Shown here: in pieces, positions 14,447-17,734 of the stretch
How positions within the stretch are numbered: the first letter of the stretch is position 1
How the letters are laid out: every line of letters starts with the position of its first letter
Source: Bdellovibrionales bacterium
Lineage (GTDB): Bacteria; Bdellovibrionota; Bdellovibrionia; Bdellovibrionales; UBA1609
Direction: 5' to 3'
DNA length: 64,000 nt
Assembly: GCA_965203095.1 (NCBI GenBank)
Contig: OZ241877.1
Span: 1,533,518 to 1,597,517 of the forward strand
Program-made: the position numbers and the translations under genes
The notes under the pieces: generated by a model
Told to the model about the DNA's origin: nothing
What the model saw: only the letters and a program-made list of their open reading frames with translations
Databases searched by the model: none

Positions 14447-14473
14447 GTCATTCCCGCCTTGAGCGGGAATCCA
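14447..14473 (+). repeat. R1 palindromic unit (CTTGA loop variant) at a cassette junction
   Basis: GTCATTCCCGCCTTGAGCGGGAATCCA lies 6 nt after the upstream stop and 8 nt before the next RBS. Confidence 0.8.
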
Positions 14474-14491
14474 AACTAAAAGGAGGAAAAA

Positions 14492-14737
14492 ATGACAGTT
14501 AAAGAATTTAAGGAACAATTAAAAAAATATCCCGATAATATGCGAGTTGTAGTTAGCGGATATGAATCCGGTTGGGACGATATAAAGATAGACAGTTTAT
14601 CCATAAGAACAGTTTTTTTAAACTATGGAAAAAAGGATTATGAGGGACAGCATGAAGACGCAGACGGCTTTACCAAAAAGAAAGCTGGAAAATTAAAAAC
14701 AGCCAAAGTTTTAGCCATTCCTCGATCTTCTAATTAG
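14492..14737 (+). CDS. Small hypothetical protein (81 aa)
   Basis: RBS AAGGAGGAAAAA is followed directly by the ATG. I recognise no motif. Confidence 0.5.
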   Translation: MTVKEFKEQLKKYPDNMRVVVSGYESGWDDIKIDSLSIRTVFLNYGKKDYEGQHEDADGFTKKKAGKLKTAKVLAIPRSSN

Positions 14738-14870
14738 TTTTTCGTGAAACAGTATCCTCTTAGCTTTCTATCCAAAGGCTGTTCCATGAGGGGCCAAGGC
14801 ATTTTTCCGCGAACAAGTTTTTATGGATTTCCGCTTTCGCGAAAATGACTTGCTTTTTCACGGAGGACTA
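14735..14870 (-). mobile_element. Chimeric R2-type element with TIR-like ends that carries an inverted R1 unit (14824-14849)
   Basis: The ends are TAGTTTTTCGTGAAACAG ... GCTTTTTCACGGAGGACTA. The interior CATGAGGGGCCAAGGCATTTTTCCGCGAACAAG resembles the inverted R2 core. Confidence 0.55.
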
Positions 14871-14913
14871 ATTAAACTGGAAATGGTTTTTAAACAAAAG
14901 GAGGAAAATAAAA

Positions 14914-15969
14914 ATGTCAGATCAAAAAAATAATCATGAAGTATTCCCTTGTTGCCCTATATGGTGGTCAGAACTTAAATCACAAAGGCATATTCAAGGA
15001 GGTTTAGACCCTATATATGAGCTTGACAGTCCTCGAGCTGGCGGAAAATATACTGTTTTGTCTTCTTTTTCACAACTTCGTGAGACTAATAAATATAAAG
15101 AACTTTTTAATGACAAAGAAAAGATTGTTTTGTCAGCTTGGATAGCCAGAGAAAACTTAAAGGGCAATGTCCCTGATCTAACATCCATGATAGGAGATAA
15201 TAGAAGAGATGCGGAGGATTATTTTTTAAATAGATTGCCCTCCAAACCCAATCCAACAGAGAGAGCTTATTTACTTTTAGAGGGACTTGTAAAAAAAAGC
15301 ACTTTTATTGGAAAAACTTTTTTAAGCCATGATATGCCATATTTAGAAGGTCCTGAAATACTTTGTTCAGATGACGGTGAAAAATATGCTTTCTTTTATG
15401 CTCTTTCTTATTGTGATGATAATAAAGAAATGAATTATCTTTTAGATTACTTAAGGAAGGAGGAGTTCATCCATAATATAGGAAAATCTAAAGATTTTCA
15501 AGTCACAGTCAAAGGCTTTGAGCAAATCAATACAGTTTCAAATACCAACTCTAAAACCGCTTTTATTGCCATGTGGATTCACTCTTCTATGGACAAGCTT
15601 TATAGAAGTATTGAAACAGCAGTCAAACAGGCAGGATATAAATCTTTGAGAATTGACAAAAAAGAGCATATCCAGAAAATTGATGATGAGGTTTTAGCAG
15701 AAATCAAAAAAGCCCGATTTGTTATTTGTGATCTCACTTCAGAAGAGGGCAAACCCAGAGGAAGTGTTTATTTTGAGGCTGGCTATGCTTTAGGAAAAGA
15801 CATTTCCATTATATGGACTTGTAAGGAAAGCCTAAAAGAAGAGTTAGCTTTTGACATTCGCCAATATAACTGTTTATTTTGGGAAGAGAATAAAATGGAC
15901 GATTTTGTTAAAAAACTTCAACAAAGGATTGAGAATGCCATAGGCAAAGGGCCTTTAAAACAAAAATAA
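14914..15969 (+). CDS. Two-domain protein: unknown N-terminal domain plus a C-terminal TIR-like / nucleoside 2-deoxyribosyltransferase-like (Rossmannoid) domain
   Basis: The C-terminal pattern is KTAFIAMW...D.LY..I..AV...G......D........I...VL..IK.ARFVICDLT....PRGSVYFEAGYALGKDISIIW. This call comes from pattern recognition only, with no search run. Confidence 0.55.
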   Translation: MSDQKNNHEVFPCCPIWWSELKSQRHIQGGLDPIYELDSPRAGGKYTVLSSFSQLRETNKYKELFNDKEKIVLSAWIARENLKGNVPDLTSMIGDNRRDAEDYFLNRLPSKPNPTERAYLLLEGLVKKSTFIGKTFLSHDMPYLEGPEILCSDDGEKYAFFYALSYCDDNKEMNYLLDYLRKEEFIHNIGKSKDFQVTVKGFEQINTVSNTNSKTAFIAMWIHSSMDKLYRSIETAVKQAGYKSLRIDKKEHIQKIDDEVLAEIKKARFVICDLTSEEGKPRGSVYFEAGYALGKDISIIWTCKESLKEELAFDIRQYNCLFWEENKMDDFVKKLQQRIENAIGKGPLKQK

Positions 15970-15976
15970 CAAACAA

Positions 15977-16002
15977 TCATTCCCGCCTTGAGCGGGAATC
16001 CA
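15977..16002 (+). repeat. R1 palindromic unit at a cassette junction
   Basis: ATCATTCCCGCCTTGAGCGGGAATCCA is followed by the conserved AACAAACCAGAAGGAGGAAAA. Confidence 0.8.
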
Positions 16003-16025
16003 GAACAAACCAGAAGGAGGAAAAA

Positions 16026-16454
16026 ATGAATCAAAAACAAGAAAAAATAACAGCAAAAGAAAAATGTCGTCAGAGGCTTTTAAGCCTTGAAAATGCTCTG
16101 GAATCTTTTAAAGAAGCTCATTCTTTTTACTTAAAAGATCCTGAAAATAAAATTTACAGTATGGCTTTAATCCAAAGTTTTGAGTTTTCTTTTGAGTTAA
16201 GCTGGGTGGCTTTAAAATATTTTATACAATATAAAGACCTTGCTACATTCAAATACGCAACGGATATTATTAAACAAGCTTTTAATAAGGATATAATTAA
16301 AGATGATAATCTTTGGATGGATATGTTAGAGTGTCGAAATAAATTATCTCATGTTTATGACGAGCAAATAGCTCGAAAATTTGTTAAAGAAATATCAAAT
16401 AAGTATATAAAAGAGATAGATAATATTTATCATTTTTTAAAAAAGGAGCTTTAA
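16026..16454 (+). CDS. HEPN-domain protein (HI0074-type nucleotidyltransferase substrate-binding subunit), the toxin half of a HEPN-MNT pair
   Basis: IQSFEFSFELSWVALKYF and the Rx4H motif RNKLSHVYDE. Its stop overlaps the start of the MNT gene (TAATG). Confidence 0.8.
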   Translation: MNQKQEKITAKEKCRQRLLSLENALESFKEAHSFYLKDPENKIYSMALIQSFEFSFELSWVALKYFIQYKDLATFKYATDIIKQAFNKDIIKDDNLWMDMLECRNKLSHVYDEQIARKFVKEISNKYIKEIDNIYHFLKKEL

Positions 16455-16855
16455 TGCCTTTTGGTCTTACTAAAAAAACTGTTAAACAGTTAAAAGATCT
16501 GTTTAAAAAATATCCTGAAATAAGCCAAGTAAAAATCTATGGTTCCAGGGCGAGAGGCGATTATAAAAGAGGTTCAGATATTGATTTGGTTTTTTTTTCT
16601 GAATCCACAAAGGAGCTGTCATTAAGGTTGTCATGGGAGTTAAAAGCACTTAACACACTTTATTTGTTTGATATTGTAAACTATAAAACCCTTAGCAATA
16701 ACTATCTAAAAAAAGAAATAGATAAATATGGAAAAGTCTTTTATTTAAGAAATTCTAAAAATTCTATCTCACAAAAAACTCGCCATTCTCACCTTGAGCG
16801 GGAATCCAAAACAAACCAGAAGGAGGAAAATAAAAATGTCAGATCAAAAAAATAA
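16454..16855 (+). CDS. Minimal nucleotidyltransferase (MNT), the antitoxin half of the HEPN-MNT pair
   Basis: GSRARGDYKRGSDIDL is the pol-beta NTase motif (GSxxxGxxxxxSDxDL). The last 30 or so codons read through the R1 junction module. Confidence 0.8.
   Translation: MPFGLTKKTVKQLKDLFKKYPEISQVKIYGSRARGDYKRGSDIDLVFFSESTKELSLRLSWELKALNTLYLFDIVNYKTLSNNYLKKEIDKYGKVFYLRNSKNSISQKTRHSHLERESKTNQKEENKNVRSKK
16782..16808 (+). repeat. R1 unit with a degenerate left arm at a cassette junction
   Basis: GCCATTCTCACCTTGAGCGGGAATCCA is followed by AACAAACCAGAAGGAGGAAAA. Confidence 0.7.
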
Positions 16856-17603
16856 GAAGAATATTGAATCCAACCAAAAATATACTCCCCCTGAGTATAA
16901 AAAAAAGGCTTTTCACTGCCCACATTGTGAAGTGTATGCGAATCAGAATTGGAAAAATATTGTTTCAGAGGACCGAGAGTATGTGTATATGAATATGGAT
17001 GATTGGTTATTGAGAACAGCCAGAAGATACAATCTAAATACAATGAATGAGTCGATTTTACAAAAAATTATAAAGGTATATAGTTCGCTTTTTATTGGAG
17101 GAATTGAACTTGCCCTTTGTGCTCGCTGTAAAAAATATTCTATATGGGTAGATGGGCAAATGGTTTATCCCAATATGCTCACAGCTCCTTTACCTATTGA
17201 GGAGATGCCGGAATCTGTAAAAAAGCTTTATAATGAGGCCAGAGAAATTTCTGGCAAGTCACCAAGGGGAGCTTGTGCCTTGTTAAGGCTGGCAGTTCAG
17301 CAACTTGTTAAAGAGTTAGGCGAAGATGAAAATAATTTAAGTAAAGCCATTGGCAATTTAGTCCAAAAAGGTTTACCAAAGAGAATACAAGAAGCTTTGG
17401 ATTCTGTTAGAGTTATTGGCAACAATGCTGTTCATCCCGGCAAGATAAATATAGAAGATAAACCAGAGATAACAGATACTCTTTTTATGCTTATCAATTT
17501 TATTTCAGAAAAAATGTTTAAAGATGAGCAAAAAGTTGAGAAAATTTTTAGCTCTTTGCCTAAAAATTCTAAAAAAGCAACAGAACAAAGAGATCAAAAA
17601 TGA
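16836..17603 (+). CDS. Zn-ribbon + DUF4145-like domain protein
   Basis: RBS AAGGAGGAAAATAAAA is followed directly by the ATG. The cysteine pairs CPHC...CARC form the ribbon. The C-terminus AREISGKSPRGACALLRLAVQQL...LDSVRVIGNNAVHPG resembles DUF4145, a family often embedded in Type I R-M loci. Confidence 0.65.
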   Translation: MSDQKNKKNIESNQKYTPPEYKKKAFHCPHCEVYANQNWKNIVSEDREYVYMNMDDWLLRTARRYNLNTMNESILQKIIKVYSSLFIGGIELALCARCKKYSIWVDGQMVYPNMLTAPLPIEEMPESVKKLYNEAREISGKSPRGACALLRLAVQQLVKELGEDENNLSKAIGNLVQKGLPKRIQEALDSVRVIGNNAVHPGKINIEDKPEITDTLFMLINFISEKMFKDEQKVEKIFSSLPKNSKKATEQRDQK

Positions 17604-17734
17604 ATCCAAAAAATCAGTTATTTAAAAAACAAAAAATCACTATTGAAGGTTTTTTTAAGACTATGCTAAATAAACTAATGACCGGAAAAATCCGAGTCCA
17701 TAAACTGGGTATGAATACAAAACCTATGGAATAA
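17600..17734 (+). pseudogene. Relic of an hsdS 3' end (44-codon ORF)
   Basis: It translates to ...ITIEGFFKTMLNKLMTGKIRVHKLGMNTKPME*. L(L/M)TGKIRV is a characteristic conserved-region motif of Type I S subunits. Confidence 0.5.

Follow-up and report, generated by a model that had tools for sequence, protein, structure and literature searches.

dRS3/NTS-type hairpins and shared translation-initiation modules at the gene junctions of a defence island in a Bdellovibrionales bacterium

The NTS repeat is a 28-nt oriented hairpin with the consensus CGTCATTCCCGCGMAVGCGGGAATCYRG, whose core is the Neisseria dRS3 element, ATTCCC-N8-GGGAAT, and related repeats (SRM) are spread across bacteria (Chenal et al. 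2025, PMC11893778). The NTS is bound by SsnA, a small nuclease of the GIY-YIG type, only when it is single-stranded DNA (ssDNA), and the cut falls a few nucleotides upstream of it; DNA arranged as NTS-gene-NTS is restricted during transformation, and the NTS-ssnA-NTS arrangement has been likened to an insertion sequence (PMC11893778). The dRS3 element is also a known target of a phage recombinase (PMC1797815), and the Neisseria repeat has been treated as well as the REPIN ATTCCCGCGCAGGCGGGAATC of a Group 2 RAYT (bioRxiv 10.1101/2021.07.10.451892). Here we describe a palindrome of this type in 64,000 nt of DNA from a Bdellovibrionales bacterium (assembly GCA_965203095.1, contig OZ241877.1, positions 1,533,518 to 1,597,517; hereafter the window), where copies lie at the junctions of a defence island (14.4-17.7 kb) associated with a type I restriction-modification (R-M) system. 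We put at about 0.6 the probability that these hairpins, fused to a leader and a Shine-Dalgarno (SD) sequence, mark points at which anti-phage genes were inserted and reordered by recombination between such modules.

The NTS/SRM repeats with their Ssn nuclease (cd10448; PMC11893778) and this locus have in common the hairpin sequence, the oriented flanks GTCA...TCCAG, multiple and mostly intergenic copies that cluster at certain non-essential genes, the NTS-gene-NTS arrangement and, in a related metagenome-assembled genome (MAG; L004 below), a GIY-YIG gene amid hairpin arrays. They differ in that the host of the window is of the Bdellovibrionota type, that the island copies have a 5-nt CTTGA loop, that the hairpin is fused to a leader/SD/start module and has no ssn gene in the window, and that the genes flanked are anti-phage genes in an R-M operon, not surface antigens. 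The Neisseria intergenic mosaic elements (NIMEs) and minimal mobile elements (MMEs) offer a second comparison (Bentley et al. 2007, PMC1797815; Saunders & Snyder 2002): dRS3-type repeats alternate with RS families, as is seen in L004, the repeats are proposed recombination substrates for the exchange of adjacent genes, and R-M genes are typical MME cargo. Nevertheless, the 'RS' beside a gene of the window appears to be a translation-initiation region extending into the gene itself, which would so give rise to chimeric N-termini, nested insertions flanked by direct repeats are directly visible, and the definition of an MME rests on conserved flanking genes and not on repeats. Of the NIME arrangement, an inverted repeat alternating with an RS of 19-214 bp, the window has only a spacer-less 28-nt array and single junction copies. 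The REP/BIME and REPIN-RAYT systems are likewise made of short extragenic palindromes spread through a genome, but the window has no RAYT, and its island copies occur singly and in one orientation rather than as inverted doublets, and lack the 5' GTAG. What is new in this NTS/NIME-type mosaic, the family itself being known, is the host lineage, the fusion to a translation-initiation module and the defence cargo in an R-M operon.

Hairpin copies and their family

The palindrome, named R1 in an earlier note on this DNA, reads ATTCCCGC-CTTGA-GCGGGAAT and, judged by sequence, is a member of the pan-bacterial dRS3/NTS (SRM) hairpin family and not a new site; the resemblance to dRS3 that the note had drawn is thus one of identity rather than analogy. 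Exact copies lie at 14450-14470 and 15979-15999 (0 expected in 100 shuffles), in the copy at 16782-16808 the left arm is degenerate (ATTCTCAC), and that at 14824-14849 is inverted and degenerate. These four sit where they had been placed, but the accompanying claim that every gene boundary carries a copy has to be narrowed to every cassette boundary, given that the HEPN and MNT genes, which overlap at 16451-16454, have no palindrome between them. The copies outside this array, and the insertion that contains the inverted copy, are as follows.

1488-1513, + strand: lone NTS-like hairpin among housekeeping genes (infC to mur ligase), without leader/SD module
9551-9578, + strand: canonical NTS/SRM hairpin AGTCATTCCCGCGAAAGCGGGAATCCAC inside the hsdS open reading frame (ORF), 2 mismatches to the published NTS consensus
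12633-12690, - strand: R2-type copy, an inverted NTS (12665-12690) with conserved flank; it separates the 566-aa and AlbA_2 genes
14738-14867: R2-type insertion of 130 nt with the decayed inverted NTS (14824-14849)
26623-26783, + strand: tandem NTS array, 5.8 units of 28 nt without spacers, immediately 3' of bamA

The copy at 9551-9578 and three units of the 26.6-kb array are within 2-3 mismatches of the NTS consensus (0 expected); the copies at 14447 and 15976 have both NTS arms and the flanks, but their 5-nt loop puts them outside the strict consensus pattern. The directional flanks read aGTCATTCCC...GGGAATCCA at 9551 and 14447, aaTCATT... at 15976 and CGTCGTT... in the array, so that the flanks typical of an NTS, with GTCA upstream and C right after the palindrome, are present. 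The window holds nine hairpin sites in 64 kb, six of them within a 7.3-kb island segment (binomial by hand, p ~1e-4), and the array behind bamA implies that the repeat is genome-wide and not island-specific. The array itself lies within the 5' region of an ORF (26546-27625) that encodes a HELAH metalloprotease-like motif further on.

The hairpins have a perfect 8-bp stem and a 4-5-nt loop, and those of the island are oriented with the genes, on the G-rich strand. Folded as ssDNA, the 14447 copy reaches -8.7 kcal/mol (z = -3.25 against shuffles), the 15976 copy -8.7 kcal/mol for the centroid and -9.1 kcal/mol for the minimum free energy structure (z = -3.8), and the 9551 copy -9.0 kcal/mol (z = -5.9). 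The 16782 copy (z = +0.46) and the inverted 14824 copy (z = -0.45) fold no better than shuffles, and two of the four array copies (14447 and 15976) can thus still fold while the other two are decayed. Other identities tried for the hairpin were rejected: a CRISPR-like array, since the 28-nt array is spacer-less and the 'spacers' of L004 are a repeated 44-nt unit; an intrinsic terminator on the coding strand, since no T-run follows the hairpin, which scores on the antisense strand only; and a known cis-regulatory RNA, since no credible Rfam match was found from 9 to 21 kb.

Outside this genome, the exact 29-mer GTCATTCCCGCGAAAGCGGGAATCCAGAA occurs in >120 metagenome contigs with a GC of 0.29-0.74, and a hairpin 23-mer in 94 viral contigs. 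Loci of other phyla that encode DUF4145, one of the island's proteins (L008-L034), have no hairpins, which indicates that the hairpin follows the lineage and not the cargo. Among 55 selected window ORFs of at least 90 aa, Pfam scans detected no integrase domain (hence no intI tyrosine recombinase), recombinase, transposase, Y1_Tnp (RAYT) or GIY-YIG (Ssn) domain, in agreement with the earlier note as regards integrases and recombinases, and tblastn with a GIY-YIG protein found no such gene in the 64-kb window. A 114-aa gene of GIY-YIG (Ssn-like) type (16164-16508; PF01541, E = 1e-14) is found in the related MAG locus L004, with hairpin arrays on both sides. In the arrays of L004 the hairpin alternates with a 44-nt repeat at a period of 70 nt; those at 9300-9750 and 12750-13520 sit between hsdM/RhuM, DUF4145 and multiple hsdS copies.

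Some copies lie within larger insertions. The hsdS hairpin is part of an in-frame insertion of about 66 nt (window 9517-9582) in the first target-recognition domain, absent from both hsdS copies of L004, and the hsdS ORF (9023-10582) reads through it as ..SSHSRESGNPQ..; none of the frames of a forward NTS contains a stop codon, and so ORFs read through. On either side of the 130-nt R2-type insertion stands the direct repeat CTAATTA(G/A) (14730 and 14868); the equivalent site of the related locus L003 has a single CTAATTAA and no insert. No convincing terminal inverted repeats were seen in this element, whose only other copy in the window is the partial one at 12633-12688; the R2-type copy at 12633-12690, which has GCGGGAATCCA on the - strand, is 82% identical over 56 nt to 14787-14842. 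The 130-nt element, the hsdS insertion and a module of about 118 nt in the related locus L001, described below, would be independent signs of hairpin units moving.

Junction modules, direct repeats and related loci

The island genes around the junctions are:

14492-14737: 81-aa gene
14914-15969, + strand: 351-aa gene; its C-terminus resembles TIR effectors (PADLOC TIR effector model, E = 2.2e-11), and its N-terminus, MSDQKN, is chimeric
16026-16454, + strand: HEPN gene (NTase_sub_bind; Pfam)
16454-16855, + strand: MNT gene (Pfam, match to residues 11-101 only; PADLOC PDC-S09)
16836-17603, + strand: DUF4145 gene (Pfam) of the PD-T7-4 anti-phage family (PADLOC PD-T7-4, E = 1.9e-77)
17600-17739, + strand: relic of an hsdS C-terminus (..LMTGKIRV..), about 140 nt, 83.5% identical to the L001 hsdS end and 80.7% to the L003 relic (11045-11188)

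The modules and repeats between them are:

14447-14491, + strand: junction 1, AlbA_2 gene to 81-aa gene; intact hairpin with loop CTTGA, short leader, SD AAGGAGG
14898-14933, + strand: H copy 1; SD, ATG and 6 codons, heading the 351-aa TIR-like gene
15976-16025, + strand: junction 2, 351-aa gene to HEPN; intact hairpin and leader CCAGAACAAACCAGAAGGAGGAAAA; J copy 1 is 15978-16024
16782-16830, + strand: junction 3, MNT to DUF4145; NTS with decayed left arm and the same leader as junction 2; J copy 2 is 16784-16830
16820-16855, + strand: H copy 2; the DUF4145 gene's own SD and 5' end, an exact repeat of H copy 1

The two direct repeats are nested, in the order H ... [J ... HEPN-MNT ... J]H. J starts at the hairpin 5' edge and is 47 nt long with 3 mismatches (44/47), its copies lying 806 bp apart. 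The junction sequence GCGGGAATCCA(G/A)AACAAACCAGAAGGAGGAAAA, described earlier as a 32-nt repeat, extends in fact over 33 nt (15992-16024 and 16798-16830) and has the single mismatch reported for it. The copies of H are identical at 36/36 positions, 1,922 bp apart, exactly as noted before, and the ORF translations confirm that both proteins begin with MSDQKN and then diverge. None of the H, junction and palindrome repeats is expected in shuffled sequence. The MNT gene, as had also been pointed out, has no stop of its own and reads across the junction to a TAA inside H; it ends 17 nt (20 with the stop codon) past the ATG of DUF4145, so that the translation of MNT and DUF4145 would be coupled. 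The MNT of L001 likewise runs into a hairpin array. HEPN and MNT, a toxin-antitoxin-type pair, appear to behave as one cassette.

The 36-nt block H does not qualify as a neutral, portable element. It is the native 5' end of the DUF4145 gene, copied onto its neighbour as a recombination scar: DUF4145 homologs begin with MSDQ/MSEQ/MSNQ..NK, and the related locus L002 has 35 of the 36 bases of H before its own DUF4145, though its elongation factor G (EF-G) is just 61% identical. N-termini in the 351-aa family differ, being MSKKENNKSKCPIW (MSKKENN..) in L001 and MFDYTTKCLIY in L002. Upstream of H copy 1, the flank aligns with the spacer that separates the 81-aa gene from DUF4145 in L003, so that the left copy would be the ancestral DUF4145 start left in place. 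The body of the 351-aa gene was presumably joined to this start after codon 6, at a shared AAAATAA, and the right copy would head the displaced DUF4145 gene; the two genes would then share their start through a crossover and not through a free-standing element.

The complete module of hairpin, leader and SD is found nowhere else in the window and before none of its housekeeping genes, and the leader AACAAACC occurs in the window at two junctions only, plus one chance occurrence. The junction 26-mer has 0 matches in 185,579 GTDB genomes and 0 in JGI metagenomes with degenerate positions allowed, and, of 113 NTS copies in metagenomes, only 7 are followed within 70 nt by an SD and a start codon, versus 11 with these on the other side. 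The earlier note had named a generic REP plus SD, placed before many housekeeping genes, as the opposite of a cassette boundary; this description is rejected for the module, which is local and uncommon among the metagenomic copies, and accepted for the hairpin alone, which occurs in housekeeping contexts too. The module recurs in L001, where GCGGGAATCCAGAACAAACCAAAAGGAGAAAAATAAAAATGTCA lies at 8789, before the ortholog of the 351-aa gene, and where the DUF4145 and HEPN genes are preceded by decayed versions of it.

Related loci were gathered through DUF4145 protein homologs. They come from different species, at 75-90% nucleotide identity, and L001 is a contig of 1.79x coverage with likely frameshift errors; a protein-based scan of GTDB gave only two close relatives, both labelled Bdellovibrionales MAGs. 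Their gene orders are:

Window: AlbA_2 - 81 aa - 351 - HEPN - MNT - DUF4145 - hsdS relic - DUF4209 - Fic
L003: AlbA_2 - 81 aa - DUF4145 - hsdS relic - 621 aa - Fic
L001: AlbA_2 - HEPN148 - 158 aa - 364 (=351) - DUF4145 - HEPN - MNT - hsdS - AAA/DUF4435 - Fic
L002: 358 (351-like) - DUF4145
L004, L249 and L250: DUF4145 followed directly by hsdS

When the locus was aligned across these relatives, which was the check proposed at the outset, gene order was found not to be shared, and breakpoints of presence/absence and of order fall at the modules. HEPN-MNT lies upstream of DUF4145 in the window and downstream of it in L001 (10869-11615), where it stands between DUF4145 and hsdS. L003 is an 'empty-site' relative without the window stretch 14737-16816 (2.08 kb), and the hairpin of junction 1 is absent from its corresponding junction; single-copy empty sites are given by L003 for H and by L001 (351 - hairpin - DUF4145) for J. 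The blastn blocks shared by the window with L001 and L003 end in a hairpin or within about 43 nt of one, and in pairwise alignments the homology changes partner inside the hairpin/leader: the 3' end of the 351-aa gene and its hairpin align with the 3' end and hairpin of the 364-aa gene of L001, where DUF4145 comes next, and from the right arm of the hairpin on the window aligns with the L001 HEPN leader. Nucleotide identity to L001 is 89.6% for HEPN-MNT, 84-87% for DUF4145, 80% for AlbA_2 and Fic and 72% for the 351-aa gene. The proposal of cassette exchange at the junctions is supported, then, in that orders differ among related loci with breakpoints that coincide with the hairpin/leader, but there is no evidence of site-specific recombination.

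L001 has in addition a second type of module, of about 118 nt, in two copies of about 92% identity (5875-5990 and 7821-7937). It is composed of a hairpin, a degenerate hairpin, a leader, ATG and about 9 codons, is common to AlbA_2 and to an unrelated 148-aa HEPN gene, and adds a 13-residue N-terminal extension before the native start of AlbA_2. On sequence grounds it appears to replicate the sharing of modules in a second genome.

False adjacencies and duplicated blocks could also arise if the contig had been mis-joined or collapsed at short repeats, and this is indeed the assembly of an uncultivated organism, with repeats that are short and multi-copy. Such an artefact is nonetheless close to negligible, as the window sits in a 1.78-Mb contig, the repeats of only 36-47 nt are far under read length, the ORFs across the joins are all intact and in frame, and each type of adjacency has a counterpart in an independent assembly (L001, L002, L003).

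The breakpoints bear also on the view that the hairpins are bystanders. Under it, the locus was rearranged by horizontal transfer of the ordinary kind and by recombination, homologous or illegitimate, in the flanking genes, NTS copies accumulated later in AT-rich gaps, as they do elsewhere, and the likeness of the junctions stems from gene conversion and from selection for strong translation initiation in a long operon. That L003 and L002 have the same genes with 0-1 hairpins would fit, as would the insertion of hairpins alone (in hsdS, in the 130-nt R2 element with its direct repeats, in the bamA array) and the fact that AAGGAGG is the common SD of this genome. We nevertheless regard this view as unlikely, for it leaves unexplained why, at three junctions, the change of partner in the homology to L001 falls exactly inside the hairpin/leader, why near-identical direct repeats of 36-47 nt surround the inserts, and why the leader AACAAACCAGAAGGAGG is found only at these junctions in the window.

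A proposed route for the insertions and its alternatives

The reading we prefer, in which recombination between modules would be the cause of the rearrangements, can be set out as follows. The intercistronic junctions of the island would have been colonised by the dRS3/NTS hairpin, which, with an A-rich leader, a strong SD and in places a start codon and the first codons, makes up modules of 40-75 nt. As the only homology among otherwise unrelated genes, these modules may have served as crossover points. Measured against an L003-like backbone (AlbA_2 - 81 aa - DUF4145 - hsdS relic - DUF4209 - Fic), the window contains two nested insertions. In the first, the TIR-like gene is joined inside the DUF4145 5' end, with H duplicated and the DUF4145 N-terminus on the TIR-like gene; in the second, an 806-bp HEPN-MNT unit sits at the hairpin/leader, with the 47-nt module duplicated. 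The route may have been integration of the Campbell type, from a circular or tandem intermediate, or else an exchange involving imported DNA, direct repeats that flank inserts being the product of single-crossover integration of a circle or of unequal exchange. Upstream of its HEPN gene, L001 has a decayed MNT tail followed by hairpin and leader, which is the junction expected of a circular or tandem (circularly permuted) form of the cassette.

These events may have been initiated by ssDNA breaks just 5' of the hairpin, made by an Ssn encoded elsewhere in the genome; this position corresponds to the start of the J repeat and to the end of the AlbA_2 block. The island copies, forward on the G-rich strand, would lie on the lagging-strand template, where they could extrude, be cut and give recombinogenic ends. 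Moreover, all genes of the island point in the same direction, with no + strand terminators between them, so that the module would supply a promoterless newcomer with a stop context, an SD and a start.

Several points weigh against this reading. The 64-kb window has no gene for a recombinase, a RAYT or an Ssn. Breakpoints at hairpins are confounded with gene boundaries, since every cassette boundary here carries a hairpin, and with comparators from different species and an L001 of low coverage the order and direction of events are deduced and not seen directly. In L003 and L002 these genes were kept or rearranged nearly without hairpins (0-1), which means that the hairpin is not strictly required, and with two of the four hairpins decayed, ongoing site-specific use is less likely.

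A dedicated site would be a stronger version of the same idea: the hairpin, as ssDNA, would be an analogue of attC, and an Ssn, a RAYT or an IS110/Piv-type enzyme encoded elsewhere would move the cassettes. In favour of this, the cassettes are hairpin-bounded and the repeat boundary of the 806-bp unit is the hairpin 5' edge. The L001 sequence ahead of HEPN, noted above, resembles a circle junction. The shared orientation of the island hairpins with the genes, on the G-rich strand, would fit too, as would the use of dRS3 by a phage recombinase (PMC1797815) and the IS-like NTS-ssnA-NTS arrangement (PMC11893778). We still judge a site-specific system quite unlikely. No such enzyme gene is present in the window; Ssn is known solely as a nuclease, with strand transfer unreported; two of the hairpins are decayed; and L003 and L002 carry the same genes almost hairpin-free. 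Furthermore, the duplication of H lies 40 nt downstream of the hairpin, in coding sequence, which fits a homologous or microhomology crossover, and no R/L box structure like that of attC is seen.

The comparison with integrons made in the earlier note is not borne out. Integron cassettes (attC/IntI) are, like those of the island, promoterless and co-oriented, with a hairpin-forming ssDNA site between them and an order that varies among relatives. The window, however, is without intI, attI and Pc, and its crossover points are not fixed. Its site is a perfect hairpin of 21-28 nt, whereas attC is an imperfect site of 57-141 nt with R''/L''/L'/R' boxes and a GTTRRRY core, a motif found at none of the cassette boundaries of the window.

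Defence cargo, neighbouring genes and significance

The island has a GC of 0.26-0.35, against about 0.39-0.42 in the flanking core, and lies between the type I R-M system and prfB. Its remaining genes, and those of the R-M system, are:

5040-7328: hsdR
7315-8793: hsdM
9023-10582: hsdS
10775-12475: 566-aa gene
12827-14440: AlbA_2/HATPase_c_4/HTH gene
17741-19564: DUF4209 gene (PADLOC PDC-S39)
19638-20489: Fic gene (PADLOC PDC-S04)

NCBIfam gave nothing on the 351-aa, 81-aa and 566-aa proteins. Orthologs of the 351-aa gene lie directly upstream of DUF4145 in L001 (72% nucleotide identity) and L002, and DUF4145 lies just upstream of hsdS in the type I R-M operons of L004, L249 and L250; DUF4145 (PD-T7-4) is apparently an hsdS-linked gene in this lineage. 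The hsdS relic after the DUF4145 gene would accordingly be the deletion scar of an ancestral DUF4145-hsdS adjacency. Within the DUF4145 gene, 16952-17115 has no nucleotide similarity to L001 or L003, both ends of the gene being 75-87% identical; this hypervariable segment lies between two Cys pairs. The 3' end of the AlbA_2/HATPase_c_4 gene has a 33-nt tandem repeat of 2.8 units (14167-14260) that encodes KFRSIFGVNA repeats, and at this position L001 has 18-nt arrays (GTCTGTCTTTCTCGCAAA) leading into a hairpin.

Accessory genes embedded in type I R-M loci are known, examples being the Campylobacter rlo genes and PrrC, and the interleaving of DUF4145/PD-T7-4, Fic, AlbA_2 and HEPN-MNT with hsdR/M/S is of the same kind. 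We know of no repeat-defined junction module described for such loci, though no dedicated search was made.

Housekeeping genes make up the remainder of the window (infC, mur ligase, lolCD, bamA, skp, ribF, pilB/T/C, fusA, rny, obg, pgk and others), and its EF-G, 66-74% identical to named matches, places the organism among uncultivated MAGs labelled Oligoflexia or Bdellovibrionales. Genes of type IV pilus/type II secretion type (pilB, pilT, pilC and pseudopilins) occur at 29979-34085 and 3754-4898; DNA uptake may thus be possible, which is relevant to the role of NTS and Ssn in transformation. The prfB gene has the classical programmed +1 frameshift site AGGAGG..CTTTGAC (about 20726-20739, within 20673-20765) upstream of the long ORF for release factor 2. 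Two tandem paralogs (59975-60934 and 61052-62023; region 59865-62100) have 89% protein identity and a common 300-nt block, 98% identical, covering promoter, ribosome-binding site and 5' end, and they represent an ordinary tandem duplication. Additionally, a 42-nt tandem repeat of 7.3 units (47556-47862; 96% matches) lies in the C-terminal extension of an ORF that starts with ribosomal protein L21.

This locus is a concrete and testable case, with hairpin-bounded PD-T7-4, TIR-like and HEPN-MNT cassettes, nested direct-repeat scars and N-terminal chimeras. A further and very doubtful possibility is that the hairpin and translation-initiation module is a true gene-capture site, in which Ssn or another hairpin-acting enzyme would cut the extruded ssDNA hairpin and units would leave as circles and re-insert at other modules. 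The result would be a cassette system resembling the integron but based on a nuclease/hairpin pair in place of a tyrosine recombinase, by which promoterless defence genes would be slotted translation-ready into R-M operons. Should the hairpins promote the rearrangements described here, repeats of the NTS type would drive the plasticity of defence islands in bacteria remote from Neisseria; otherwise, the locus would still be a clean example of leader homologies of 40 nt sufficing to shuffle the genes of an operon.

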